Shown: positions 2,479 through 64,000, counted from the stretch's first letter. The stretch: 64,000 nucleotides of DNA from a virus (IMGVR_UViG_3300037258_000282:88590-152589), one strand, 5' to 3'. Translations and numbers: made by a program. The notes: a model not told the origin generated them from the letters alone.

Positions 2479-4611
2479 TTATCCCGAGAAGTTGCCAACT
2501 ACCTCTGCGAAGGCCACTCCGGTCGGAACAGCTACAAAATTAAGTTGTATAAAGTTAATTGAGCGCGATGGCTTGACGTATATGTCGGCCACAAACTGAT
2601 TTGAGTCAATTACCTGAGCCGTGTTGTTGGTGGTATCGCAGACAACTTCGAAGTCAAAGATACCATCGAGAGCCTTGATTCCCGCAAGATATGGAGTCAC
2701 CATATTGACGAACGCCGCGCGGGTAAACGCGTCATTTAGCTGGAATAGGGTATACTTCGCGGCTATAGAGATGGCCTTCTCTATGGTGATGAACAGGCGC
2801 CTGACGTTGATGCGATCGAAGGCCGACGGCTGCGACAGCATCGTCTTGTCTCCGTAGAGGATCGTTCCCTGAGCCGGGAAAGTCACTACCGGATCTATGC
2901 CGTTTGGATACAGGAGATTCCTATCCGAGAGGGCCGGATTGAAGCGCATCTTGACGACGTTGTTTATCTGACCGCGGTTGAAGCCGGCCGGTGAGTCCCA
3001 AGGATATCCGATGGAATCATTCCTCACGCAGAGCCCGGCGATGTCTCCGTTGGTCGGAACCCACCTATAGACGTCATTATACCTATCGTACTGGTACTTA
3101 TACCCGGAATCGATCAGGGCATAGGAAGTAGACGAGAGGATGTTCCTCCAGTTTATGAGCGCTACGGCCTCATTATTATAGTTGTTAGTGATGACCGCGT
3201 CGTCTGGAGTGATAAACACCACGCAGTCTAGGCGAAATTGGGCGATATTCTGGATCAGCCACTCACTTAGGAGGAAGTTGTTGATCTGCATGCCGGATCC
3301 ATCTAGGGCTACCGTAGCTCCACCGATAGGTCTTCCCTGAAGGATCAGAGACACGTCGATGTCTTCGGTCGACTGAAACTTCAGGTAGCCGTTGGTGATG
3401 GTCGCCAGCGAGGCGTTGGACTCGCCGACTCCGTCTTGGCCGGAGTTAAAGGCGATCGTAAGTGGAAAGCTGTCTGACGAGCTGAGGAGCGACGTGGAGA
3501 TCGCGGAGTTGGCCGCGTGATCTGGGCGATCGTTTACTCCCCAGGCGTACTGAGAGTTCTGGTTGAGGACGGTCTTCCAGAAGTTCGTCACACCACCTAC
3601 GGTCAGCGCGTCGGTCGCGCGAGATAGGTTGGTGTAGGTCTCGAGAATGGTTCCAGGGACTCCCGAGAAATCTCCGTTCTCATCTTGAATGACCACGTGC
3701 ATTCCATCGATGATCGACGCGTTGGACGTCTTCGTCGCCATATACGGCGTCTGCTGAGGTGGAACTCCGATGACGTTCTGAAATTCCCAGAACCTAGTGA
3801 TGAAGTTGGTGTTCGCCGCGGCAGATGAGTTGATCGAGAAGTCCGTCGATACGATATACTTCGAGGTCAGTCCGACAGATACGGTCGAGATATTCGAAGT
3901 CGCGTTCGTGGTAAGTACCGGAGCTGATATCGTCGCGATCTGAGAGTACTGCGTTCCGACAGAGGTATTTCCCAGCACTATGTAGTCGCCAACAGAGAAG
4001 TTAGAGATCAGCGTGTTGACCGCCGCAGTTATCTGCGTTCCGTTAGCGCCGACCATCACGAGTGATACGGCGTTAGATCCAGTATTGATCGACGCGGTAG
4101 TCACTACAGCGTTTGAAGATACGGCGTTTGGAAGAAAGACGTTTGAGGTATAGGCATTGACCGAGTCGCACACCGACACGAGAAGTGAATTTCCGAGCCC
4201 GCCCGGCCACTTAGCGATGAACATCGCGTTAGTGTCGAATGATACGACGTTCTCAAATTGAGCCTCGTTAGTGACCACGCAAAGCGCGACGTTAGCGACC
4301 GGTCCGGTGTTGGCGATAGCGTTGAGAGCGGCATTGGCGTCACCAGAGGTCGTGTTGGCCGCGCGAACGACGAAGAGCTGATTACCATAGGACAGGAAGT
4401 TAGCCGCGGTAAACCAAGTCTGGAAGTTGTTCTGGTTAGGAGATCCAAAGGTCGACACTAGAGTCGACTCGGAGTTGATCTGAATGGCCTCTCCAACTGG
4501 TCCCCAGCTGAAGATACCGGCAATCGCTCCCTGAGTAGTGCCTACCGCCGGAACTATGGTAGTTAGGTCAAACTCAGTTACGTTTACGCCGGGAGATAGT
4601 TGAGTCGCCAT
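2479..4611 (-). CDS. gp18: Tail sheath protein
   Basis: MATQLSPGVNVTEFDLT, FSWGP, SPAGFNRGQI, SAFDRINVRRLF, YVKPSRSINFIQLNFVA. Confidence 0.97.
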   Translation of the reverse strand: MATQLSPGVNVTEFDLTTIVPAVGTTQGAIAGIFSWGPVGEAIQINSESTLVSTFGSPNQNNFQTWFTAANFLSYGNQLFVVRAANTTSGDANAALNAIANTGPVANVALCVVTNEAQFENVVSFDTNAMFIAKWPGGLGNSLLVSVCDSVNAYTSNVFLPNAVSSNAVVTTASINTGSNAVSLVMVGANGTQITAAVNTLISNFSVGDYIVLGNTSVGTQYSQIATISAPVLTTNATSNISTVSVGLTSKYIVSTDFSINSSAAANTNFITRFWEFQNVIGVPPQQTPYMATKTSNASIIDGMHVVIQDENGDFSGVPGTILETYTNLSRATDALTVGGVTNFWKTVLNQNSQYAWGVNDRPDHAANSAISTSLLSSSDSFPLTIAFNSGQDGVGESNASLATITNGYLKFQSTEDIDVSLILQGRPIGGATVALDGSGMQINNFLLSEWLIQNIAQFRLDCVVFITPDDAVITNNYNNEAVALINWRNILSSTSYALIDSGYKYQYDRYNDVYRWVPTNGDIAGLCVRNDSIGYPWDSPAGFNRGQINNVVKMRFNPALSDRNLLYPNGIDPVVTFPAQGTILYGDKTMLSQPSAFDRINVRRLFITIEKAISIAAKYTLFQLNDAFTRAAFVNMVTPYLAGIKALDGIFDFEVVCDTTNNTAQVIDSNQFVADIYVKPSRSINFIQLNFVAVPTGVAFAEVVGNFSG

Positions 4612-45795: not shown

Positions 45796-45870
45796 TGGTA
45801 GGCGTACAGTGAGTCGAACACTGATAAAACCTGTTATGAGCAGGTGGCATTACCATTATGCTATACGCCT
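45796..45870 (-). tRNA. tRNA with CAT anticodon (Met elongator or Ile2)
   Basis: AGGCGTA/TACGCCT acceptor stem, CCTG-CTCATAA-CAGG anticodon arm, TTCGACT T-loop, encoded ACCA. Confidence 0.9.
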
Positions 45871-46406: not shown

Positions 46407-46742
46407 TCAGATCTTCTTGATCTCGCCTACCACGTCCGAAGCCGCGGTCTCGATTCCAGTCAGGATCTTGGACCCAACGCTCTCGACGACCGGAGCAGCT
46501 GGCGATGCCGCCGCTGCCGCTACCACCGCAGTCGCGGTGGAAGTTACCGTCGATACTGCCGCATTCGCCGCGGCTAGAGTCGTTGGATTCATGACGGCCT
46601 TCTCAGCAGACTTGACGTCGTTTGACACGGCAAGACCGATTCCACCGAGCTCAGTGTTGACGCTCGGCTGCCACCAATTCATCTTGTAGCCGACGAACGC
46701 GATCACGCATACTAATACTAACAACCAGAAAATAACTGCCAT
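46407..46742 (-). CDS. Hypothetical membrane-anchored Ala-rich protein
   Basis: N-terminal transmembrane helix; strong GGAGG SD. Confidence 0.7.
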   Translation of the reverse strand: MAVIFWLLVLVCVIAFVGYKMNWWQPSVNTELGGIGLAVSNDVKSAEKAVMNPTTLAAANAAVSTVTSTATAVVAAAAASPAAPVVESVGSKILTGIETAASDVVGEIKKI

Positions 46743-46760
46743 AGATCTCTCCTCCTAGAC

Positions 46761-46799
46761 AAAAAAGACGCGGATTTTGTTGTTTCCGAGAAAATCCGC
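46761..46799 (-). terminator. Terminator / 3' hairpin of tmRNA
   Basis: GCGGATTTT...AAAATCCGC stem followed by a T6 run on the minus strand. Confidence 0.75.
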
Positions 46800-47012
46800 A
46801 AACTCAGCGAGGGTTACGCCGCTAGGCGGGCCTCACAGGCGAAGTTGTCGTTCGCATTTAACTACGATAGGTCTCTCAACGGGAGCCATCAACGCCAGTC
46901 GATCCTATTTCGCCCCCAGCAGAAGAGAACCCTTAGATTCTCTCGTGGTGGAGGCGCCGGGTACTGCCCCCGGGTCCTTGCGCCTATCTCGTCGTATCAA
47001 CGATTCCCATCA
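46764..47012 (-). ncRNA. ssrA: Permuted two-piece tmRNA (alphaproteobacterial type); tag ANDNFACEARLAA
   Basis: Acceptor piece GACCCGGGGGCAGTACCCGGCGCCTCCACCA ends at 46946. A 28-nt intervening segment follows. The coding piece starts GGGGGCGAAATAGGATCGAC at 46917 (G3-U wobble). Tag frame 46855-46814. Outer ends approximate. Confidence 0.93.
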
Positions 47013-47018
47013 TATCGA

Positions 47019-47026
47019 TATTTATA
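47019..47026 (-). promoter_or_regulatory. T4-type late promoter driving tmRNA
   Basis: Exact TATAAATA immediately upstream of the tmRNA acceptor piece. Confidence 0.75.
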
Positions 47027-47065
47027 TATCTAATCTGGGACCGCGACAATAGAAAAAAATAGAAG

Positions 47066-48749: not shown

Positions 48750-49388
48750 TTAAGAGAAGATCGTGGTGGTCACCATCACTCTCCCATAGACCTCCGCGCT
48801 CCCATAGACCCGAGCGTTCTCATAGATCCGAGCGCTTCCATAGACCTCCGCGTTCCCAAAGACCTGAGCGTCTCCATAGACCTCCGCGTTCCCAAAGACA
48901 TAAGCGTTCCCATGGACATAAGCGCTTCCATAGACCAGAGCGTCCCCATAGACCCGAGCGTCCCCATAGACCCGAGCGTCCCCATAGACCCATCCGGAGT
49001 CCGATAGGTTCTCCTCGCGCTCGATCCATCCCCCGAGGTCTTCGGCCTTGACTCCATGGATTGGAATATCCCGAGTAGCCCGAATCCTTCTGAGAGTGAC
49101 TCCATAGTGGAGTAGAGTCTCTCCGGTGAACTCAAATGTTTTATTGGAGGTCTTCGTACTTGAGTTCATCTCTGAGTCGAGATTGTCGAGTGCGTGCCTA
49201 ACGTCCGCCATCTCTCTCCGCACCCAGTCGACGTTCATCTCTCGCTGATCTGGTGGCAATTCTGGATTGAATGAGGACCATCCACACCGAAGCGTCTTAC
49301 CTAGCGCGGCGCACAGCTCTCCGCACTCCTCGACTGTTTTTCCTACTGCAAAGTCGAGCCCTGGACGCATGTATCGCTTATCTGTCAT
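48750..49388 (-). CDS. MazG-like domain fused to a hexapeptide-repeat paralogue
   Basis: KTVEECGELCAALGK...REMADV (MazG-like acidic pattern), then FEFTGETL...LGGWIEREENLSDSGWV and VYGDAR repeats. Confidence 0.7.
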   Translation of the reverse strand: MTDKRYMRPGLDFAVGKTVEECGELCAALGKTLRCGWSSFNPELPPDQREMNVDWVRREMADVRHALDNLDSEMNSSTKTSNKTFEFTGETLLHYGVTLRRIRATRDIPIHGVKAEDLGGWIEREENLSDSGWVYGDARVYGDARVYGDALVYGSAYVHGNAYVFGNAEVYGDAQVFGNAEVYGSARIYENARVYGSAEVYGRVMVTTTIFS

Positions 49389-49879: not shown

Positions 49880-50800
49880 CTATAGTCTTCCTATGGCGCG
49901 CTCTAGAAAGTTAATAATATCTATCGTCTCGTCACCCAGAGGCGTACCTCCGCGTGTTTCCTGCCAGTGCTCCCGCGCCTCGGCGAAGGTAAAATACCTG
50001 CATCCGGCCGTGAGGCGCGGCGTACCATCGGCGCATGGAAACGCGAAGAACGTATAGCCGTCGCTGCGCATGACGAAAGGAAGATTCATCGTTATCCGCG
50101 CGCCACCGAAGACCCGAGCGCTCCCGTAGACCTTAGCGCTTCCATAGACCTCCGCGTACCCATAGACCCGAGCGTCCTCAGAGACTTGAGCGTCCCCGTA
50201 GACCCAAGCGTCCCCATAGACCATGGCGTCATCATAGACCCAGGAGTTTCCATAGACCCGAGCGTCCCCATAGACCCGAGCGTTCCCATGGATATAAGCG
50301 CGCCCGGAGACCCAAGCGCTCCCGGAGACCTCCGCGTACCCATAGACCCAGGAGTTTCCATAGACCCGAGCGTTCCTATGGACCTCCGCGCCACCGCAGA
50401 CCTGAGCGTCCCCGTGGACTATAGCGCTTCCATAGACCTTCGAGTTCCCATAGACCCGAGCGCCTCCGTAGACCCGGGTGCGCCCATAGACCTGAGCGTC
50501 CCCATAGACCCAAGCGTCCCCATAGACACGAGCGCTCCCGGAGACCAAAGCGCCCCCGTAGACCCGAGCGTTCCCATGGATATAAGCGCTACCATAGACC
50601 TGAGCGTCCCCATAGACCCAAGCGCCGTCCGTGTGACTTAGGTTACGTTCGGTCGCGATGTAACCACCAAGGCTACCTACTTGCACTTCTCCAAATTCCC
50701 GCGCCGCGACAATGCGATAAAGTGTCGTACCATCATTTGAGGTAACTGTATCATCTGGTAGCAAGTTGTACTTGGTAACATAAATTTGATTGTCGCTCAT
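49880..50800 (-). CDS. Hexapeptide-repeat (left-handed beta-helix-like) protein with C-terminal AGCRYF...EAREHW domain
   Basis: LYRIVA...LGGYIATERNLS, about 29 VxGxAx repeats, then RSDGYTF...AGCRYFTFAEAREHW. Confidence 0.8.
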   Translation of the reverse strand: MSDNQIYVTKYNLLPDDTVTSNDGTTLYRIVAAREFGEVQVGSLGGYIATERNLSHTDGAWVYGDAQVYGSAYIHGNARVYGGALVSGSARVYGDAWVYGDAQVYGRTRVYGGARVYGNSKVYGSAIVHGDAQVCGGAEVHRNARVYGNSWVYGYAEVSGSAWVSGRAYIHGNARVYGDARVYGNSWVYDDAMVYGDAWVYGDAQVSEDARVYGYAEVYGSAKVYGSARVFGGARITMNLPFVMRSDGYTFFAFPCADGTPRLTAGCRYFTFAEAREHWQETRGGTPLGDETIDIINFLERAIGRL

Positions 50801-50849: not shown

Positions 50850-52253
50850 TCATCCGCGCTTCTTCCTCCATGGAGCGTCTCTCTGCCAGTCACCTGCCAT
50901 GATATTTCCAATTGGATCGACATAATCGACTATATCACAGAGATCGAAGTCTTTTATCTGACTCAGAATCTCTTTTGCGGACTTGTACGCCGATGGAAGT
51001 TCAGATTTATCTGGAATTCCAGAGAAGTATCTTACGTCGATTCCCTTAGCCTCATTCCTGATGATCTCCTCTACCGGACGATCAGCGCTCATCCTTAGGT
51101 ACTTTCCGCGTGAGAAATTCCTTCCAGCCCCATGCGGAGCGAATCCGAGGGATGATGACATACCAGACTCCGGACGCGTCTTCGCCATCAGAATCGGCTC
51201 TGCCATGTTGAGCGGTATCAGAGTCAGATTGTTGGTGTCGTCAGAGAAGAAGTCATATGCTGGAGTCGCGCCCTTGGCGTGATAGAACAATCCGTCGGAT
51301 TTCTGAAACACGAAGTTGTGCTCGTTCCAAAATCGATCTTTGACCTTCAGACCTAGGGCGTCTGCGCAGGCATCGTGTATGGCGAAGTGACTCTTCTTGG
51401 TCCAGCGCCTGATCAGCTGAAGCGCCGCCCAATACTCCCTCCCGTCGTCTGACTCTGTGGGTATCCACGCCTGATGCTCTGGAACATCCGGAGCGATCTT
51501 CCTCCTATGACTCTCCGCGCACGCCATGCCTCGGTCGAAGAGCATGGCGCCAGGTTTTCTAGAGCCGTGATGAGTCACGAGAGCGATCTGTCCGGTCGAC
51601 CTGACTCGCCCGACGAAGAAGAAGTGATTTCCGTCGCCCTGAGTTCCGAACGTCGCGGAGGCCGCATCTCCCATCATCGACAAGAACTTGTTTCTCTCGA
51701 AGTCGTCCATCAGATCTTGAGATGGACATAGGGCTCGGTAGGTTTTCTTTCTCCCGCCGAAGTGCGAGAGCTTCATCCCCGCGTCGAGCAGATCTGTTCC
51801 AGTATTAGTGGAGGAAGCGAAGCCCGCTTGTCCGAATATAGATATGGCCATAGAGCAGCATATGTCGGATGAGTGCATGGCCGGATGAATGGCACTCTTA
51901 CAGGCCGCGACGCCGCCGACCGGAATCACCCCGAGTCTCAGATCGTAGGGGCACGCATCCGGCATTATGGTCGCCGCGATTACGGTGGGAACTCTAACGA
52001 GCTCGTCCATTGACTTTGCTACCATATCGTAGTTCGCCAGATCATCGTCTGTATTCAGGCGGATGTTAGAGCTCCACCGTGGTCCCGATCCCGACTTCCT
52101 GAGACTCATCTGAACTGGCTCGTAGTGGTCGGCGAACGCGCGGATCTCCTCGTCAGTCTCGAACGAGAGACAGGCTGAGTCTGCGATGACCGCCTTCCAC
52201 CACGGCGCGCCGCGGTATCCCAATTCCTTAAGCTTCGAACCAGTGATTTCCAC
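50850..52253 (-). CDS. rtcB: RtcB-family RNA ligase (3'-phosphate/5'-OH)
   Basis: MPDAC, IPVGGV, DICCSM, GTQGDGNHF, VTHHGSR, NEHNF, HAKGAT, HGAGRNFSR, ELPSAYK. Likely GTG start at 52253 after GGAGG. Confidence 0.92.
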   Translation of the reverse strand: MEITGSKLKELGYRGAPWWKAVIADSACLSFETDEEIRAFADHYEPVQMSLRKSGSGPRWSSNIRLNTDDDLANYDMVAKSMDELVRVPTVIAATIMPDACPYDLRLGVIPVGGVAACKSAIHPAMHSSDICCSMAISIFGQAGFASSTNTGTDLLDAGMKLSHFGGRKKTYRALCPSQDLMDDFERNKFLSMMGDAASATFGTQGDGNHFFFVGRVRSTGQIALVTHHGSRKPGAMLFDRGMACAESHRRKIAPDVPEHQAWIPTESDDGREYWAALQLIRRWTKKSHFAIHDACADALGLKVKDRFWNEHNFVFQKSDGLFYHAKGATPAYDFFSDDTNNLTLIPLNMAEPILMAKTRPESGMSSSLGFAPHGAGRNFSRGKYLRMSADRPVEEIIRNEAKGIDVRYFSGIPDKSELPSAYKSAKEILSQIKDFDLCDIVDYVDPIGNIMAGDWQRDAPWRKKRG

Positions 52254-52281
52254 AGCGATGATCCTCCGATCTTGCCTCCCC

Positions 52282-52378
52282 ACGATATACCTTCCATGAG
52301 CGACTGTCAATAGATCATCTCTCTGACCTTCAGAGCAGTTAACTCATGATTGACAAATCCGCTCGAGAGTGATAGTAT
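52282..52378. promoter_or_regulatory. Divergent sigma70-like early promoters
   Basis: Minus strand TTGACA-N17-TATCGT (52310-52282); plus strand TTGACA-N17-TAGTAT (52350-52378). Confidence 0.75.
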
Positions 52379-54856: not shown

Positions 54857-54931
54857 TCCACGATAGTTTAATCGGTAGAACCTCGGGCTCTGAACTCGGG
54901 AATCCTAGTTCGAATCTAGGTCGTGGATCCA
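54857..54931 (+). tRNA. tRNA-Gln (CTG)
   Basis: TCCACGA/TCGTGGA acceptor stem, CTCTGAA anticodon loop, CCTAG-TTCGAAT-CTAGG T-arm, encoded CCA. Confidence 0.9.
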
Positions 54932-55153: not shown

Positions 55154-55182
55154 TTGACATCTTCTTAAAGAGGTGATATGTT
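55154..55182 (+). promoter_or_regulatory. sigma70-like early promoter
   Basis: TTGACA-N17-TATGTT with TG. Confidence 0.7.
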
Positions 55183-56183: not shown

Positions 56184-56240
56184 TATGATTTATGAATAGG
56201 ACTCAGAGGACGCGAAGTCCTCTGATCGACAGGAGGTAAC

Positions 56241-56837
56241 ATGACCAAGCACTTTGAATTTACCGATGAGACTTTATTCGACTCCGGAATAATCCTCAGG
56301 AGGATTCGTGCTACTCGGAATATTCCAATCTATGGGGTAGAGACCGGAGACCTCGGGGGATGGATCGAGCGCGAGGAGAACCTATCGGACTCCGGATGGG
56401 TCTATGAAGACGCTCGAGTCTATGGGGACGCCATGGTCTATGGGGACGCTATGGTCTATGAAGACGCTCTGGTCTATGGAAGCGCTAAGGTCTACGGGAG
56501 CGCTCGGGTTTTCGGGGACGCTCGGGTCTTCGAGAGCGCTTTGGTCTATGGGGACGCGGAGGTCTATGGAAGCGCTTATGTCCATGGGAACGCTCAGGTC
56601 TATGGGTACGCGGAGGTCTATGGAAGCGCTAAGGTCTACGGGAGCGCTCGGGTCTTCGGGGACGCTCGGGTCTTCGAGAGCGCTCAGGTCTATGGGGACG
56701 CTCAGGTCTATGAAGACGCTTTGGTCTATGAAGGCGCTAAGGTCTATGGGGACGCTAAGGTCTATGGGAGAGCTCGGGTCTTCAGAAACTCCGTGATCTC
56801 TGGCTCAACCCACGTCACTCTAGATCTTAGATCGTAA
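56241..56837 (+). CDS. Hexapeptide-repeat protein, array copy 1
   Basis: KHFEFT...GDLGGWIEREENLSDSGWV plus VxGxAx repeats; AGGAGG SD. Confidence 0.85.
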   Translation: MTKHFEFTDETLFDSGIILRRIRATRNIPIYGVETGDLGGWIEREENLSDSGWVYEDARVYGDAMVYGDAMVYEDALVYGSAKVYGSARVFGDARVFESALVYGDAEVYGSAYVHGNAQVYGYAEVYGSAKVYGSARVFGDARVFESAQVYGDAQVYEDALVYEGAKVYGDAKVYGRARVFRNSVISGSTHVTLDLRS

Positions 56838-56847
56838 AGCGCGACCA

Positions 56848-56876
56848 TTGACATCGAAGCGAGATCTTGATAAGGT
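56848..56876 (+). promoter_or_regulatory. sigma70-like early promoter
   Basis: TTGACA-N17-TAAGGT with TG. Confidence 0.65.
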
Positions 56877-56902
56877 ATCTTCCATTGGATAGGAGGTTCG
56901 AC

Positions 56903-57457
56903 ATGGCTAATCACTTCGAGTTCACCGGTGAGACTACTACCTTCGATGGAGTCACCCTCCGTAGGATCAGGGCTACTCGAGATATACCCGAGTACGCCGT
57001 CGCCGTCGGAGACCTCGGGGGATGGATCGAGCGCGAGGAGAACCTATCGGACTCCGGATGGGTCGATGGAGAGGCCAAGGTCTATGGGGACGCTCGGGTC
57101 TTCGGGAACGCTCTGGTCTCCGGGAGCGCTCAGGTCTTCGGGGACGCTCGGGTCTTCGGGTACGCTCAGGTCTTCGGGTACGCTCGGGTCTTCGGGAGCG
57201 CTCAGGTCTTCGGGAACGCTCGGGTCTATAATTCCACGATCGAGCCGTCGATCGTGGACCGAATCTATGAGACGCCCGGCGCGCAGCTATCCGAAAAGGA
57301 CTGTAGGAAGACTGCGGTAAGTTCATTCGTTGAAAATATCGTGAAGTCAATGATCCACGGCTCCGACGCCCCACTCGCGAAGTTGTCCGTAGAATTCACC
57401 GACGGGACGAAGATCACTGTCGATCTCCCGAAGCGGTCCAAGCGCGCGGCAGATTAG
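56903..57457 (+). CDS. Hexapeptide-repeat protein, array copy 2, with unique C-terminal domain
   Basis: MANHFEFTG start after AGGAGG; short repeat tract; C-terminus LSVEFTDGTKITVD. Confidence 0.85.
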   Translation: MANHFEFTGETTTFDGVTLRRIRATRDIPEYAVAVGDLGGWIEREENLSDSGWVDGEAKVYGDARVFGNALVSGSAQVFGDARVFGYAQVFGYARVFGSAQVFGNARVYNSTIEPSIVDRIYETPGAQLSEKDCRKTAVSSFVENIVKSMIHGSDAPLAKLSVEFTDGTKITVDLPKRSKRAAD

Positions 57458-57458
57458 A

Positions 57459-57487
57459 TTGACATATGCCCACGATCCTGATAATCT
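57459..57487 (+). promoter_or_regulatory. sigma70-like early promoter (duplicated at 60603)
   Basis: TTGACA-N17-TAATCT with TG. Confidence 0.65.
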
Positions 57488-57499
57488 GGAAATGAGGAG

Positions 57500-57724
57500 T
57501 TGCACGAGATGATAGAGAAAGCGGATTATCAGAGGACCGAGCTCGGTTCCATCATCGGAAAGACTGTAAAGTCGATAACGCATGACTATAGGGCCCCGAT
57601 GGCTCGATTCACCGTTGAGTTCACCGATGGAATGAAGATGTCGGTCGATCACTCTGGAATGTTCGACTCGAATGGGTATCTGTTCGACACTGACTCGATA
57701 AGGTACCCATATGAGAGGACTTGA
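57500..57724 (+). CDS. Hypothetical protein
   Basis: IIGKTVKSI...FTVEFTDGMKMSV; downstream of a promoter and SD. Confidence 0.6.
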   Translation: MHEMIEKADYQRTELGSIIGKTVKSITHDYRAPMARFTVEFTDGMKMSVDHSGMFDSNGYLFDTDSIRYPYERT

Positions 57725-57965
57725 TCGCGACCACCACCGCCCTCCCATGCACATCGGATATTCTAAGGGAACATGGGTGATGTTTCTCGAGAACGGCGAG
57801 CCACCCATGCGGTTTGACTCCATCGTGTCCATAGAAGCGTTCTGTGAGGCGAGATGGCCGCATGAGTATGGGCCCAAGAATCAGAGGGCTGAACGCGAGA
57901 GTATTAGAGACGACAACGTCAGGTGGTTTAACTCCTGGCCTAAGTTTAACCGGAGAAAAAGATGA
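57711..57965 (+). CDS. Hypothetical protein
   Basis: 84 aa; ATGA overlap with the next gene. Confidence 0.55.
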   Translation: MRGLDRDHHRPPMHIGYSKGTWVMFLENGEPPMRFDSIVSIEAFCEARWPHEYGPKNQRAERESIRDDNVRWFNSWPKFNRRKR

Positions 57966-58789
57966 GCAGTCACTACAGGCTTACCGAAGAGACTATGACT
58001 CTCGATAAGACAGTACTTCATAGAATTCAGGCTCTCCGAGATATTCCAATCTATGGGGTAGAGACCGGAGACCTCGGGGGATGGATCGAGAGGGAAGATA
58101 ACTTATCGGACTCCGGATGGGTCGGGGAAGAGGCCATGGTCTACGGGGACGCTCGGGTCTATGGGGACGCTTGGGTCTGTGGGGACGCTCGGGTTTTCGG
58201 GAGCGCTTTGGTCTATGGGGACGCTTGGGTCTTCGGGAGCGCTTTGGTCTATGGGGACGCCATGGTCTATGAGAGCGCTCGGGTCTTCGGGAGCGCTCGG
58301 GTCTTCGGGAGCGCTTTGGTCTCCGGGAGCGCTCAGGTCTATGGGGACGCTCGGGTCTATGGGAGCGCTCGGGTCTATGGGGACGCCATGGTCTATGGGG
58401 ACGCTCGGGTCTTCGGGAGCGCTCAGGTCTCCGGGAGCGCTTGGGTCTCCGAGAGCGCTTTGGTCTATGGGGACGCTTGGGTCTACGGGGACGCTCGGGT
58501 CTTCGAGAGCGCATGGATCTACGGGGAAGCGGAGATCTCCGGGAACTCGAAGGTCTCCGAGAGCGCTCGAGTCTATGGGAGCGCTTGGGTCTCCGGGAGC
58601 GCTCGGGTCTATGGGAGCGCTGAGATCTATGACGCTCGAGTCTCCGGGAGCGCTCGAGTCTCCGGGAGCGCTTTGGTCTCCGGGAGCGCTCGTGTCTATG
58701 GGAACGCTCGTGTATATGGGGACGCGGGGGTCGGAGGAGAGACCGTGGTCTATGACTCAACCCACGTTACTAGGAGTTTGCGTCTATGA
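57962..58789 (+). CDS. Hexapeptide-repeat protein, array copy 3
   Basis: MSSHYRLTEETMT...GDLGGWIEREDNLSDSGWV plus a long repeat tract. Confidence 0.85.
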   Translation: MSSHYRLTEETMTLDKTVLHRIQALRDIPIYGVETGDLGGWIEREDNLSDSGWVGEEAMVYGDARVYGDAWVCGDARVFGSALVYGDAWVFGSALVYGDAMVYESARVFGSARVFGSALVSGSAQVYGDARVYGSARVYGDAMVYGDARVFGSAQVSGSAWVSESALVYGDAWVYGDARVFESAWIYGEAEISGNSKVSESARVYGSAWVSGSARVYGSAEIYDARVSGSARVSGSALVSGSARVYGNARVYGDAGVGGETVVYDSTHVTRSLRL

Positions 58790-59277
58790 AGCACTTTGAG
58801 TTCACCGGAGAGACTTTATCCGACTATGGAGTCACTCTCAGAAGGATTCGGGCTACTCAAGATATTCCAGTCTGTGGAGTCAAGGCCGGAGACCTCGGGG
58901 GATGGATCGAGCGAGAGGAGAACCTATCGGACTCCGGATGGGTCGGGGAAGAGGCCAAGGTCTACGGGAGCGCTCAGGTCTCCGGGAGCGCTTGGGTCTC
59001 CGGGAGCGCTCAGGTCTATGGGGACGCCTGGATCTACGAGAGAGCTCGAGTCAATGAAAGTGCTAAAGTCTACGAGAACGCTCAAGCCTACGGAAGCGCC
59101 TGGATCTACGAGAGCGCTCAGGTCTACGGGTGCGCGGATGTCTACGGGAGCGCGGATGTCTACGGGCGCGCCCAGGTCTTTGGGAGCGCTCGAGTCTACG
59201 GGAACGCGGATGTCTTTGGGAGCGCTCAGGTCTATGGGGACGCGGAGGTCTATGGGAGCGCGGAGGTCTACTTCTGA
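58786..59277 (+). CDS. Hexapeptide-repeat protein, array copy 4
   Basis: MKHFEFTGETL head; ATGA overlap. Confidence 0.85.
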   Translation: MKHFEFTGETLSDYGVTLRRIRATQDIPVCGVKAGDLGGWIEREENLSDSGWVGEEAKVYGSAQVSGSAWVSGSAQVYGDAWIYERARVNESAKVYENAQAYGSAWIYESAQVYGCADVYGSADVYGRAQVFGSARVYGNADVFGSAQVYGDAEVYGSAEVYF

Positions 59278-59359
59278 GGACTACGGTGGTTTAACCGGAG
59301 AAAAAGATGAGCAGCTATCGTCACTACAGGCTTACAGGTGGTTTTAACCGGAGAAAAAG

Positions 59360-59956
59360 ATGAGCAGCTATCGTCACTACAAGCTTACCGAAGAGACTAT
59401 GACTCTCGATAAGACAGTACTTCATAGAATTCAAGCTCTCCGAGATATCCCGAGAGCTATGGTTAGAGTCGGAGACCTCGGGGGATGGATCGAGCGAGAG
59501 GAGAACCTATCGGACTCCGGATGGGTCGATGGAGAGGCCAAGGTCTACGGGGACGCTCGAGTCTCTGAGGATGCTCAGGTCTATGGGTACGCGGAGGTCT
59601 ATGGAAGCGCTAAGGTCTACGGGAGCGCTCGGGTCTTCGGGTACGCTCGGGTCTTCGAGAGCGCGGAGGTCTACGGGGACGCTCGAGTCTATGGAGACCC
59701 ATGGGTCTATGGAGAAGCTCGAGTCTTTGGGTACGCCCGAGTCTATGGCGACGCGCGCGTATATGACTTCAGAAAAGTCTACGGAAGCGATGAGGTCTAT
59801 AACAACGCCCAAAGCTTGAAACAAGAGCCGGGGCCCGCGCCCACTGAGAGATCTACTGAGAGATCCGAGTCTACAGACTCTTCGCTTCCTAAGCTTCCTA
59901 AGATCTCAATAGAGTTCGTAGATGGAGTAGTGAAGATCGCGATAGGTCTGAAGTGA
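59360..59956 (+). CDS. Hexapeptide-repeat protein, array copy 5, with unique C-terminal tail
   Basis: MSSYRHYKLTEETMT head; ends ISIEFVDGVVKIAIGLK. Confidence 0.85.
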   Translation: MSSYRHYKLTEETMTLDKTVLHRIQALRDIPRAMVRVGDLGGWIEREENLSDSGWVDGEAKVYGDARVSEDAQVYGYAEVYGSAKVYGSARVFGYARVFESAEVYGDARVYGDPWVYGEARVFGYARVYGDARVYDFRKVYGSDEVYNNAQSLKQEPGPAPTERSTERSESTDSSLPKLPKISIEFVDGVVKIAIGLK

Positions 59957-59983
59957 AGATCGTCGTCGACATGGGATCCTAAC

Positions 59984-60625
59984 ATGAAGCACTTCGAGTT
60001 CACCAGAGAGACTTTATTCTTCAATGGAGTCACCCTTCATCGAATTCAAGCTCTCCGAGATATCCCGAGAGCTAAGGTTAGAGTCGGAGACCTCGGGGGG
60101 TGGATCGAGAGGGAAGATAACTTATCGGACTCCGGATGGGTCGGGGAAGAGGCCAAGGTCTTCGGGAACGCGGAGGTCTTTGGAAACTCTCGGGTCTTCG
60201 GGAGCGCTCGGGTCTCAGGGGACGCTTGGGTCTACGGGGACGCTTGGGTCTTTGGGCGCGCTCTGGTCTCAGGGGACGCTTGGGTCTCCGGGGACGCATG
60301 GATCTACGGGCGCGCTCTGGTCTCCGGGGACGCGTGGGTCTTCGGGGAAGCGGAGGTCTCCGGGAACTCGAAGGTCTACGAGAGCGCTCGAGTCTCCGGG
60401 AGCGCTTGGGTCTCCGGAAGCGCTCGGGTCTATGGGAGCGCTGAGGTCTATGACGCCGGACGAGTATATCAAGACGCCAAGGTCTTCGGGAACGCTAGAG
60501 TCAATGGCATCGCCCTAGTCTCCGGGAGCGCTCGAGTCTCCGGGAGCGCTCAACCCACGTTACGGAACGAAGATCACTGTCGGTCCGAGTGCGCGCGCGA
60601 GATTGACATAGGCCCACGATCCTGA
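59984..60625 (+). CDS. Hexapeptide-repeat protein, array copy 6
   Basis: Chimeric head (KHFEFT plus HRIQALRDIPRA). Confidence 0.85.
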   Translation: MKHFEFTRETLFFNGVTLHRIQALRDIPRAKVRVGDLGGWIEREDNLSDSGWVGEEAKVFGNAEVFGNSRVFGSARVSGDAWVYGDAWVFGRALVSGDAWVSGDAWIYGRALVSGDAWVFGEAEVSGNSKVYESARVSGSAWVSGSARVYGSAEVYDAGRVYQDAKVFGNARVNGIALVSGSARVSGSAQPTLRNEDHCRSECAREIDIGPRS

Positions 60626-60631
60626 TAATCT
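60603..60631 (+). promoter_or_regulatory. sigma70-like early promoter (copy of 57459)
   Basis: TTGACA-N17-TAATCT. Confidence 0.65.
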
Positions 60632-60715
60632 GGAAATGAGGAGTTGCACGAGATGATAGAGAAAGCGGATTATCAGAGGACCGAGCTCGGTTCCATCATC
60701 GGAGAGTTCGCGTCT

Positions 60716-61354
60716 ATGAAGCACTTTGAGTTCACGGGAGAGACTCTACTCCACTCTGGAGTCACTCTCAGAAGGATTCGGGCTACTCGGGATATTCCAA
60801 TCCATGGAGTCAAGACTGGAGACCTCGGTGGATGGATCGAGCGCGAGGAGAACCTATCGGACTCCGGATGGGTCGGGGAAGAGGCCAAGGTCTCCGGGTA
60901 CGCTCGTGTCTACGGGGACGCTCAGGTCTCCGGGAACGCTCATGTCTTCGGGTACGCATGGATCTACGAGAGAGCTCGAGTCAATGGAAGTGCTAAAGTC
61001 TACGGGAGCGCTCGTGTCTATGGGAACGCCTGGATCTACGAGAGCGCTCATGTCTTCGGGTACGCATGGATCTATGGGAGCGCTCGTGTCTACGGGTATG
61101 CTCAGGTCTCCGGGAACTCGAAGGTCTCCGAGAGCGCTCGAGTCTATGGGAGCGCTCAGGTCTATGGGAGCGCTCAGGTCTCCGGGGACGCTCGGGTCTT
61201 CGGGCGCGCTCGGGTCTATGGGCGCGCTCAGGTCTATGGGGACGCTTTGGTCTATGGAGACGACGCTTTGGTCTATGGAGACGCTTTGGTCTATGGGGGC
61301 GCTCGGGTCGGAGGAGAGACCGTGGTCTATGGCTCAACCCATGTATGTTACTAG
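60716..61354 (+). CDS. Hexapeptide-repeat protein, array copy 7 (possible in-frame N-extension from 60644)
   Basis: MKHFEFTGETL at 60716; the upstream in-frame segment copies the first 20 codons of the 57500 gene. Confidence 0.85.
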   Translation: MKHFEFTGETLLHSGVTLRRIRATRDIPIHGVKTGDLGGWIEREENLSDSGWVGEEAKVSGYARVYGDAQVSGNAHVFGYAWIYERARVNGSAKVYGSARVYGNAWIYESAHVFGYAWIYGSARVYGYAQVSGNSKVSESARVYGSAQVYGSAQVSGDARVFGRARVYGRAQVYGDALVYGDDALVYGDALVYGGARVGGETVVYGSTHVCY

Positions 61355-61366
61355 GAGTTCGCGTCT

Positions 61367-62131
61367 ATGAAGCACTTTGAGTTCACGGGAGAGACTCTGG
61401 AGTCACTCTCCACGGGAGAGACTCTACACTCTGGAGTCACTCTCAGAAGGATTCGGGCTACTCAAGATATTCCGAATGGAGGAGTCAAGGCCGGAGACCT
61501 CGGGGGATGGATCGAGAGGGAAGATAACTTATCGGACTCCGGATGGGTCGGGGAAGAGGCCAAGGTCTCCGGGCGCGCGCGGGTCTTCGGGGACGCCATG
61601 GTCTTCAGGAGCGCTTGGGTCTATGGGAGCGCTCAGGTCTCCGGGAGCGCTTGGGTCTGTGGGGACGCCATGGTCTATGGGGACGCTCAGGCCTTTGGGT
61701 GCTCCCGAGTCTTTGGGGACGCTGAGGTCTTTGGGGACGCTCTGGTCTATGGGGACGCGAGGGTCTTTGGAAACTCTCGGATCTACGAGAGCGCGCTGGT
61801 CTTCGGGTACGCTCAGGTCTCCGGGAACGCTCATGTCTTCGGTGACGCTCACGTTCGTGGGAGCGCTCGGGTCTTCGTGGACGCGAAGGTCTCCGGGCGC
61901 GCTCGGGTCTTCGGGAGCGCTCTGGTCTTCGGGTACGCTCAGGTCTTCGGGAGCGCTCGTGTCTATGGGGACGCTCAGGTCTTTGGGCGCGCCCTAGTCT
62001 ATGGGGACGCTCGGGTCTATGGGGACGCTCTGGTCTATGGGGACGCTGAAGTCCTCGAGCGCGCGGAGGTCTACGGGGACGCTGAAGTCTATGGAGGCGC
62101 GCTCTACGGTACTCATAGGAGACATGACTAA
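61367..62131 (+). CDS. Hexapeptide-repeat protein, array copy 8
   Basis: Head with an internal duplication (ETLESLSTGETLHSGVTL); long repeat tract. Confidence 0.85.
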   Translation: MKHFEFTGETLESLSTGETLHSGVTLRRIRATQDIPNGGVKAGDLGGWIEREDNLSDSGWVGEEAKVSGRARVFGDAMVFRSAWVYGSAQVSGSAWVCGDAMVYGDAQAFGCSRVFGDAEVFGDALVYGDARVFGNSRIYESALVFGYAQVSGNAHVFGDAHVRGSARVFVDAKVSGRARVFGSALVFGYAQVFGSARVYGDAQVFGRALVYGDARVYGDALVYGDAEVLERAEVYGDAEVYGGALYGTHRRHD

Positions 62132-62630
62132 GCACTTTGAGTTCACGGGAGAGACTCTACGGAAGCGCCTGGGTAACTCTCGAGTCTATGGGAACGCCTG
62201 GATCGCTCCTAGTCTCTACGGGGACGCGCCTGGATCAGAGCGGACTCAGACTCCGAGAGCGAACTCCAGCGAACTCCAGCGGACTCCAGCGGAAGAGAGT
62301 GAACTCCAGCAGACTCCAGCAGACTCCAGCAGACTTCAGCGAACTCCAGCGGACTCCAGCAGAAGAGAGCAGACTCCAGCAAACTCCAGCAAACTCCAGC
62401 AGACTCCAGCAGACTCCAGCAGACTCCAGCGGAAGAGAGCGGACTCCAGCAGACTCCAGCAGACTCCAGCAGACTCCAGCAGACTCCAGCAGACTCCAGC
62501 GGAAGAGAGCGGACTCCAGCGAACTCCAGCGGACTCCAGCGGACTCCAGCGGACTCCAGCAGACTCCAGCAGGAGAGCGAACTCCAGCGAACTCCAGCAG
62601 ACTTCAGCAGACTCCAGCGGACTCCAGTAG
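62124..62630 (+). pseudogene. Degenerate paralogue head (MTKHFEFTGETL) fused in frame to the 10-bp satellite
   Basis: AGGAG SD plus ATG 62124; scrambled repeat fragments, then TPADSSRLQQ-type decapeptides up to TAG 62628-62630. Confidence 0.55.
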
Positions 62631-64000
62631 ACTCCAGCAGAAGAGAGCGAACTCCAGCAGACTCCAGCAGACTCCAGCAGACTCCAGCAGACTTCAGCAG
62701 ACTCCAGCAAACTCCAGCAAACTCCAGCAGACTCCAGCGGAAGAGTCCAGACTCCAGCAGACTTCAGCAGACTTCAGCGAACTCCAGCGGACTCCAGCAG
62801 ACTCCAGCAGACTCCAGCAGACAGACTCCAGCAGACTCCAGCGGAAGAGTCCAGACTCCAGCAGACTTCAGCAGACTTCAGCAGACTTCAGCGAACTCCA
62901 GCGGACTCCAGCAAACTCCAGCAGACTCCAGCGGAAGAGAGCGGACTCCAGCAGAAGAGAGCAGACTCCAGCAAACTCCAGCAAACTCCAGCAGACTCCA
63001 GCAGACTCCAGCGGAAGAGAGCGGACTCCAGCGGGAAGAGAGCGGACTCCAGCAAACTCCGGCAGACTCCAGCAGAAGAGAGCGAACTCCAGCAAACTCC
63101 GGCAGACTCCAGCGGAAGAGAGCGGACTCCAGCGGAAGAGAGCGGACTCCAGCAAACTCCGGCAGACTCCAGCGGAAGAGAGCGGACTCCAGCAAACTCC
63201 GGCAGACTCCAGCGGAAGAGAGCGGACTCCAGCAAACTCCGGCAGACTCCAGCGGAAGAGAGCGGACTCCAGCAAACTCCGGCAGACTCCAGCGGAAGAG
63301 AGCGGACTCCAGCAGACTTCAGCAGACTCCAGCAGACTCCAGCGGAAGAGAGCGGACTCCAGCAGAAGAGAGCAGACTCCAGCAAACTCCAGCAAACTCC
63401 AGCAGACTCCAGCAGACTCCAGCGGAAGAGAGCGGACTCCAGCAGACTCCAGCGGACTCCAGCGGACTCCAGCAGCTCCGAGCGAACTCCAGCGGACTCC
63501 AGCAGACTCCGAGCGAACTCCAGCAGACTCCAGCGGACTCCAGCGGACTCCAGCAAACTCCGGCAGACTCCAGCGGAAGAGAGCGGACTCCAGCAGACTC
63601 CGGCAGACTCCAGCAGACTCCAGCAGACTCCAGCAAACTCCAGCAGACTCCAGCGGAAGAGAGCGGACTCCAGCAGACTCCAGCAGAAGAGAGCGAACTC
63701 CAGCGGACTCCAGCAGACTCCAGCGGAAGAGAGCGGACTCCAGCAGCTCCGAGCGAACTCCAGCGGACTCCAGCAGACTCCGAGCGAACTCCAGCAGACT
63801 CCAGCGGACTCCAGCGGAAGAGAGCAAACTCCGGCAGACTCCAGCGGAAGAGAGCAGACTCCAGCAGACTCCAGCAGACTCCAGCAGACTCCAGCAGACT
63901 CCAGCAAACTCCAGCAGACTCCAGCGGAAGAGAGCGGACTCCAGCAGACTCCAGCAGAAGAGAGCGAACTCCAGCGGACTCCAGCAGACTCCAGCGGAAG
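62240..64000. repeat. 10-bp-period satellite (ACTCCAGCAG and variants), >1.7 kb, continues past window end
   Basis: Units are ACTCC/AAGAG/ACTTC followed by AGCAG/AGCGG/AGCAA/AGCGA/GGCAG; four exact 40-bp higher-order copies at 63141-63300. Confidence 0.97.

Follow-up and report, generated by a model that had tools for sequence, protein, structure and literature searches.

Eight related hexapeptide-repeat genes, R1 to R8, lie together on the plus strand at positions 56241-62131 of the viral DNA stretch IMGVR_UViG_3300037258_000282:88590-152589, and they raise the question of why a phage would keep so many versions of one repeat protein and how those versions came to differ. The window, that is, the whole 64-kb stretch, is the final part of a 152,589-bp IMG/VR virus record that is linear and 91% complete according to CheckV. 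An earlier note on this DNA had proposed a candidate recombination-driven diversification system, built of eight intact paralogues with a common head motif, 10 to about 35 units and variable tails, accompanied by two inverted copies (I1 and I2) and one relic. Open reading frames (ORFs) and PF18836 scores confirm the eight genes with these features, and the inverted copies and the relic are also confirmed. We consider it probable that the array reflects a lineage-specific expansion, to 15 members, of a YdcK-like β-solenoid family that evolves by ordinary recombination in the early region of a T4-type genome. Five parts of this explanation can be read directly from the sequence: that the copies belong to the family, how they are built, that they are mosaics, that their wobble bases are frozen, and that dedicated enzymes are absent.

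An expanded family of YdcK-like solenoids

The eight array copies and both inverted copies match PF18836 (B_solenoid_ydck) with 43.8-123.5 bits for a gathering cut-off of 30 bits, and PHROG families 7964 and 5070 match all copies over head and repeats with E-values of 1e-33 to 1e-100. Residues 25-220 of I2 align with residues 24-218 of the YdcK crystal-structure sequence (2f9c_A; phmmer E-value 1.6e-15), head included. The NCBIfam equivalog model for YdcK, NF040481, gave 49-95 bits against a cut-off of 350, with about positions 11-197 of its 326 aligned; because this model was matched weakly, the phage copies would be classified as distant YdcK homologues and not as equivalogs. YdcK of Escherichia coli and Salmonella (2F9C, 2PIG) and the phage copies have in common a head of the form G-x-x-GG-[WY]-[IV]...NLS...W[VI] and a solenoid of six-residue repeats with 18 residues per turn. 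The phage repeats are, however, far more regular, and the array copies are shorter and lack the C-terminal part. YdcK is itself a single chromosomal gene of unknown function, and its name says nothing about a role in the phage.

A search of the whole record located five further plus-strand copies (L1 to L5) at contig bases 105-6631. The family total is 15, comprising 13 copies on the same strand (eight in the window and five at the left end) and the two inverted ones; together they occupy ~9.4 kb, or ~6% of the record. All eight array ORFs are intact, so that the frame is indeed kept as the earlier note had said, and intact frames of 163-275 codons are found in 13 of the 14 same-strand copies. 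The tail sheath, baseplate wedge proteins and large terminase place the phage, by sequence, in the T4 superfamily; the large terminase is 55% identical to those of Sinorhizobium phages phiM12 and phiN3. The host is probably an alphaproteobacterium.

Each array gene encodes a conserved head of ~55 residues, a rod of 10-35 hexapeptides and a short idiosyncratic tail. All eight carry GDLGGWIERE(E/D)NLSDSGWV at the end of the head, and Tandem Repeats Finder detected an 18-bp period in every array gene. Among the 312 units parsed from the copies, position 1 is Val (94%) or Ile, position 3 Gly (82%) or Glu, and position 5 Ala (90%); position 2 is Tyr, Phe or Ser, position 4 Ser, Asp, Asn, Arg or Tyr, and position 6 Arg, Gln, Trp, Leu, Lys or Glu. 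This pattern fits a fold in which V1, G3 and A5 form the core and turns and positions 2, 4 and 6 face outward and vary, in stripes rich in Tyr, Ser, Asp, Arg and Trp. I2 alone retains the canonical C-terminal domain, which is conserved across the family (consensus CGCFxGTxxEFxxxVxxTHG) and missing from the array copies. AlphaFold models this domain (residues 240-306) as four strands and two helices with a predicted local distance difference test score (pLDDT) above 90; no Pfam family covers it, no structural match was found, and an Atlas look-up returned only its own family.

The AlphaFold models of R1 and I2 show the strict six-residue strand periodicity of a solenoid when analysed with DSSP, and a Foldseek search of the Protein Data Bank with both models gave no match at E ≤ 0.001. 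In VIA-align comparisons, the I2 model matched left-handed LpxD, GlmU, LpxA and YdcK at Z 15-19 but with a root-mean-square deviation (r.m.s.d.) of ~12 Å, and right-handed Ag43 and TibA at 2.4 Å and Z 14-15. Because the distance-matrix score is blind to chirality, we read the I2 model as one that seems to be wound right-handed, opposite to the homologous YdcK crystal structure. Homology favours the left-handed YdcK type for the phage proteins, and AlphaFold may have wound this very regular hexapeptide repeat the wrong way. Of the left-handed β-helix with surface variation that had been suggested for these proteins, a β-solenoid varying at positions 2, 4 and 6, which should face outward, is upheld; the left hand has homology for it and the AlphaFold fit against it.

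These comparisons bear on two enzymatic or structural roles. Hexapeptide acyltransferases of the LpxA/GlmU type, modifying for example sugars of hypermodified phage DNA or of the host envelope, are suggested by the top distance-matrix folds (LpxD and GlmU, Z 17-19), by weak NCBIfam and Pfam similarity to the GlmU, LpxD and LpxA repeats, and by 'putative acyltransferase' annotations. We nevertheless hold this role to be highly improbable: the high-Z matches have the ~12 Å r.m.s.d. given above, the similarity is confined to the repeat, and Hexapep (PF00132) stays below its cut-off, with I2 alone matching (23.3 bits against 27). The array copies are bare rods without active-site loops or C-terminal domains, and 13 surface-variable paralogues would be unexpected of an enzyme.

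The proteins might instead form bactofilin-like polymers, or coat the virion or some structure inside the cell, the paralogues serving as blocks of different length. Whole-protein scores for Bactofilin (PF04519) of 30.4 bits for R3 and 28.3 bits for I2 against a cut-off of 27.9, although no single stretch passes, point in this direction, as do the public label 'polymer-forming cytoskeletal protein' and the fit of the AlphaFold model to right-handed helices, the hand of bactofilin. These scores are borderline and come with zero independent stretches (the other copies reach 18-25 bits), whereas in sequence the proteins are far more closely related to YdcK. The genes have no late promoters and lie in an early, non-structural region, and variable exposed residues would be unexpected in a self-assembling lattice; a structural or cytoskeletal role is very unlikely in our view.

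Members of the family are widespread: 7,469 of 8,000 scored candidates were significant homologues, mostly metagenomic and viral, and the hosts of cultured-phage members include Streptococcus, Liberibacter, Xanthomonas, Vibrio, Bacillus, Lactobacillus and Mycobacterium, among others; Streptococcus Sfi19, Xanthomonas CP1 and Curvibacter P26059A are individual phages that have family members. The two public labels quoted above are guesses. The phage copies are direct members of PHROG 7964 and 5070 (with 20149 for the head and 20532 for the C-terminal part), families that form tandem arrays elsewhere too. The family alignment retrieved 79 IMG/VR loci; at least two ORFs with a head lie within 10 kb of each other in 32 of them and at least four in 16, the maximum being seven, so that the statement that phages usually carry one or a few copies is only partly true. 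Several copies also occur in non-structural regions of the cultured phages LfeInf (Lactobacillus; adjoining the terminal repeat) and KLEB27-3 (Bacillus). By sequence, the family appears to have expanded independently in many phages, and the present array is near the top of its range and not a new kind. What distinguishes it from the other sets is the total of 15 copies, the loss of the C-terminal domain in the array and one copy decaying into a 10-bp satellite.

Many of the IMG/VR family loci stop within 1-2 kb of a contig terminus, and in some contigs both termini bear copies; arrays of the family often break assemblies or occupy genome termini. In the GenBank entries of Vibrio phages 1.034.X, 1.139.A and 1.209.O, matches to host spacers of clustered regularly interspaced short palindromic repeats (CRISPR) are annotated over the family gene.

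Frozen codons, mosaic copies and tempo

The wobble bases of the units are near-frozen when set against genome usage. Val is encoded by GTC in 98% of cases (30% genome-wide), Gly by GGG in 81% (12%) and Ala by GCT in 75% (26%); codon 4 almost without exception has the form NNC (Ser AGC; pattern [AGCT][GA]C) and codon 6 the form NNG (Arg CGG; [CTAG][GAT]G). Synonymous differences per site (pS) amount to 0.055 at codon 1, compared with 0.55 over the head's first half. At 48 other IMG/VR family loci, each lineage freezes codons of its own, often at 90-100% (GTT/GGT/GCT, GTA/GGA/GCT or GTG/GGC/GCG), and a 24-nucleotide (nt) stretch of head-core DNA has zero exact matches in IMG/VR or the JGI metagenome collection. 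Because other lineages freeze different codons and the head-core DNA is unmatched elsewhere, the wobble uniformity indicates concerted evolution within a lineage and not a family-wide DNA motif. Units would have been re-amplified repeatedly from a few founders, with later change retained mostly where it altered exposed residues.

The ratio of nonsynonymous to synonymous differences per site (pN/pS), pooled over units, reaches 2.0 for codon 4 and 1.06 for codon 6, as against 0.18-0.43 for codons 3 and 5. Amino-acid change would thus outpace silent change at exposed positions, and we infer diversifying selection on a binding surface. The heads, with pN/pS of 0.17-0.49, appear to be under purifying selection. 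The copies do not, as had been thought, hold the same units in a different order: 145 distinct peptide units occur among the 312, and 8 exact two-unit words are common to copies against 3.3 ± 1.6 in shuffles, a modest excess. Unit similarity is flat (~0.70 at the nucleotide level) at offsets 1-12, with no face-specific or higher-order periodicity.

Exchange between copies is most evident in the heads. The I2 head has 54-60% nucleotide identity to every other copy, and 63 consecutive nt (VYGYAEVYGSAKVYGSARVF) are identical in I2, R1 and R5. A variable six-residue patch pairs copies across clusters, with R4 equal to L1 and R1 to R3, and with R8 similar to L2, R7 to I1 and L3, R2 to L4, and R5 to R6; the R6 head is chimeric, its N-terminus being of A type and its middle of R5 type. 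A PHI-like test on a 120-nt head alignment gave an incompatibility of 0.339 for neighbouring informative sites, compared with 0.450 ± 0.027 for permuted sites (0 of 2000 as low), and all four gametes are present at 158 of 351 site pairs. Outside the heads, a cassette of ~104 nt, which holds a promoter, its leader and 21 codons from the start of the small ORF (~57456-57558), is duplicated with ~98% identity at 60600-60702, creating the R7 fusion, and the tails STHVTRSLRL, STHVCY and STHVTLDLRS are the same DNA with small insertions or deletions.

These scars reflect homologous and illegitimate recombination, for which special machinery is unneeded. No match to reverse transcriptase (PF00078) was obtained in the 152.6-kb record, which is 91% complete, so that the absence is not absolute, nor any to resolvase/invertase (PF00239) or tyrosine recombinase (PF00589); control genomes responded in each case. 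The recombination-driven diversification of the earlier note therefore stands in that segments have been exchanged and unit numbers differ, but the record holds no enzyme dedicated to it. We propose that the genes belong to the early, hyperplastic portion of a T4-type genome and evolve as whole genes and promoter-leader cassettes are duplicated, copies undergo homologous exchange or gene conversion, and 18-bp units are gained or lost, all of which the general recombination of the phage itself would provide. The locus shares with diversity-generating retroelements and shufflons the concentration of variation on a few codon positions of a repeat-containing protein and the presence of inverted copies nearby. 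It differs from them in that the record contains no reverse transcriptase, template/variable repeat pair, or serine or tyrosine recombinase, and from retroelements in that the variable bases are not adenine-specific.

How fast this happens is a separate matter. Were the array a rapid device, copy number and unit order would shift within populations by unequal crossover on 18-bp units and so renew a set of anti-defence binders. The mosaic blocks, the ~98% identical cassette and the variable unit numbers are in keeping with such a device, and the frozen wobble implies repeated amplification of units. The inverted copies are possible donors, given the 63-nt block that I2 has in common with R1 and R5, and T4-type phages recombine intensively. 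The paralogues are old, however: head DNA is 70-95% identical among copies, the first half of the head has a pS of 0.55, and exact repeats extend to at most 85 nt between copies (the longest between R4 and L1) and 39 nt within a copy, which suggests long-diverged genes and not recent near-identical amplicons. The tracts show no higher-order periodicity or block structure, and a dedicated enzyme is lacking; we regard a rapid device as decidedly unlikely.

In a gene accordion, an array of near-identical copies is short-lived, growing and shrinking again in the course of passages. The poxvirus accordion, an amplification of K3L, was reportedly described by Elde and colleagues in 2012. Tandem multiplication of genes by recombination in a large double-stranded DNA virus is common to both cases, but the phage copies diverged long ago, have promoters of their own or are coupled, and differ in length and tails. 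An assembly artefact, in which collapsed or chimeric repeats mimic an array, might be suspected since the contig ends in a 10-bp satellite and many IMG/VR family loci lie at contig ends. The heads differ by 5-30%, though, the tails and flanks are distinct, all frames are intact, and exact repeats as short as those found are resolvable by ordinary reads. Because the heads have diverged and the exact repeats are short, both explanations are disfavoured: the accordion invoked by the earlier note is not borne out, the copies being no near-identical amplicons, and an artefact is extremely improbable.

Ordinary recombination could also have multiplied the genes to no purpose, a recombination-prone hyperplastic region expanding repeat-rich genes without benefit while some of them decay. 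The relic that degenerates into satellite, the frame-shifted tails, the R7 and I1 fusions and the lost -35 box of L2 are what such a neutral or selfish process would leave behind. Yet 13 of 14 same-strand frames have stayed intact despite repeats prone to shifts of register, the head pN/pS is as low as stated above, the array costs ~6% of the packaged genome, and independent expansions have occurred in many phages; there is, we believe, little likelihood that the expansion is neutral.

Predicted early expression and possible roles

The promoter class was defined by the regular expression TTGAC[AT]-N14-TGATAnnnT, which matches ~25 sites genome-wide that cluster in the array region, and sites of this class at the left end lie at 51, 1431, 4782 and 6049. 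The -35 box has been lost before L2. The early-type promoters mentioned in the earlier note are present as predicted sites of this σ70-like class, but only some genes own one, and R4, R8 and the relic begin at or inside the preceding stop codon and are translationally coupled. The final codons of R6 (IDIGPRS and stop) cross the next -35 box, and the R6 stop TGA supplies the TG of the extended -10 element. The T4-type late motif TATAAATA has no occurrence in the arrays. This layout would fit four early transcription units. Because σ70-like promoters and coupling are found in an early region without a late promoter, we infer early expression, and the proteins would most likely act inside the cell.

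Hyperplastic regions and promoter-early stem-loop (PeSL) cassettes are features of T4-type phages (Arbiol et al. 2010, PMC2839356). Our locus is similar in belonging to a T4-type genome region with many non-essential early genes and in having σ70-like promoter cassettes, predicted to be active, at recombination junctions (R2, the small ORF, the R7 leader, L1, L3 and L5). The stem-loop or terminator half, in contrast, is not evident: folds 5′ of the L1 and L3 cassettes do not surpass shuffled sequences (z-scores of -0.27 and +0.18), and the single strong hairpin precedes R1 (56199-56227; -20.5 kcal/mol, z -2.6) and has no T-run. The cassettes also differ in multiplying one gene family and not shuffling unrelated ORFans.

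As for the partners of the exposed stripes, host proteins such as defence or takeover targets are a speculative and, on balance, doubtful suggestion. A broader proposal is that phages maintain a widespread repertoire of such proteins, in which a constant head engages a common partner, the exposed stripes are re-made, early binders neutralise variable host proteins such as defence sensors, expansions arise independently and I2 acts as a sequence donor; taken as a whole, this is unlikely. PADLOC returned no hit, and a literature search on YdcK/PF18836 function, hexapeptide repeats in phage early genes and left-handed β-helix anti-defence proteins found nothing relevant. DNA mimicry was considered separately and is not favoured, the proteins having isoelectric points of 4.5-7.8 and net charges of -12 to +1, far from Ocr-like mimics.

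Several points weigh against the explanation we favour, a lineage-specific expansion driven by ordinary recombination in the early region. The pN/pS excess is limited to codon 4 and was obtained by comparing units in a pool and not by fitting a phylogenetic model. Promoter activity is deduced from consensus-like matches, and the -10 element of the main cassette (TAAGGT) is weak when its TG extension is left aside. The AlphaFold models are of moderate confidence (pLDDT 64 for R1 and 76 for I2, the latter given as 70-84 with the fold comparison), and in handedness they disagree with crystalline YdcK. No finding links the family to any target. Finally, no close relative of the phage was present in the collections searched (GenBank phages by megablast, IMG/VR and JGI metagenomes), the best matches having 54-63% amino-acid identity.

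The discovery is incremental, as the family, the arrays and the shuffling mechanism are of kinds already known. The family is nevertheless among the commonest unexplained phage gene families, and the locus provides a natural data set of 15 paralogues and 312 units with a core/surface split, lineage-specific frozen wobble and recombination scars. It illustrates the diversification of repeat proteins in the hyperplastic regions of T4-type phages and helps in the design of functional experiments.

Layout of the locus and neighbouring features

Table 1. Genes, promoters and repeats of the array region and the inverted copies, with positions counted from the first base of the window.
Feature	Position	Strand	Description
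I1	48750..49388	-	212 residues; MazG-like fragment that continues in frame into an entire array-type paralogue
I2	49880..50800	-	Divergent canonical full-length copy; head, 29 units and C-terminal domain of ~65 residues; downstream of RtcB
Promoter before DUF932 gene	55154..55182	+	σ70-type, TTGACA-N14-TGATATGTT; 5′ of the DUF932 gene preceding R1; top match of the consensus scan
R1	56241..56837	+	YdcK-like; 198 residues; 23 units; tail STHVTLDLRS
Promoter cassette before R2	56848..56876	+	TTGACA...TGATAAGGT with common leader and ribosome-binding site; likewise before L1, L3 and L5
R2	56903..57457	+	184 residues; 10 units; tail carries 'VEFTDGxK' mini-module
Small-ORF promoter	57459..57487	+	TTGACA...TGATAATCT; within the duplicated cassette
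Small ORF	57509..57724	+	71 residues; no family; 'VEFTDGMK' motif as in R2 and R5 tails
R3	57962..58789	+	275 residues; ~35 units; stop overlaps R4 start (ATGA)
R4	58786..59277	+	163 residues; 18 units; 85-nt exact head block in common with left-end L1
Direct duplication	59285..59388	+	53 bp, spanning the ribosome-binding site and first R5 codons (recombination scar)
R5	59360..59956	+	198 residues; ~15 units; 'IEFVDG' tail mini-module; 63-69-nt exact block with R1 and I2
R6	59984..60625	+	213 residues; 23 units; chimeric head
Duplicated promoter	60603..60631	+	5′ of R7 leader
R7	60653..61354	+	~25 units; the first 21 small-ORF codons continue in frame into an entire paralogue, which has an internal start (MKHFEF) at 60716
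R8	61367..62131	+	254 residues; 31 units; stop within the relic's first codons
Relic	62124..~62262	+	Ninth copy, reduced to 12 head codons and 3-4 units by loss of the head core and decay into satellite
Satellite	62263..64000		10-bp units RACTCCAGCR / GAAGAGAGCR; at least 173 units; ends the contig

The left end of the contig (left-end bases 1-50) begins AGAATGTCC, and the sequence upstream of L3 (left-end bases 1380-1400) reads ACTCCAGAATGTCC, where ACTCCAG-AATGTCC joins a satellite unit to that same left-end sequence. Circular permutation is typical of T4-type genomes. Because the left end matches the post-satellite sequence at L3 and such genomes are circularly permuted, the window array and the left-end copies are probably one locus bridged by the satellite, if the map is circular. 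The record would then probably be a circular map interrupted within the satellite, and the locus would probably run R1-R8, relic, satellite, L1-L3, a 3.3-kb spacer and L4-L5. The left-end spacers contain 12-bp GGTCAGAGACTT units and an ~80-bp repeat (left-end bases 1295-1335, 2498-2550 and 4076-4325). In the 2.1-2.5 kb spacer among the left-end copies, none of the ORFs belongs to a family and Rfam gives no match, and Rfam applied to the left-end region found nothing between L3 and L4. At the other flank of the array, 80 IMG/VR loci examined around genes related to the DUF932 gene held no family copy.

Reading frames open in the other five frames of the repeats (for example at 57993-58760 on the minus strand) were rejected as overlapping genes, being open merely since the 18-bp unit is stop-free in every frame. 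The module 'xVEFTDGxKIxVD', present in the R2 tail (57330-57457), in the small ORF and in the R5 tail (59880-59956), belongs to neither a Pfam nor a PHROG family. In I1, residues 12-73 match the middle of a MazG-like nucleoside triphosphate pyrophosphohydrolase family (phrog_4856).

I2 sits 49 nt 3′ of the RtcB RNA ligase gene (50850-52310, minus strand), on the same strand, and genes for tRNA-Met (45796-45870), transfer-messenger RNA (tmRNA; 46723-47038) and tRNA-Gln (54857-54931) lie nearby.

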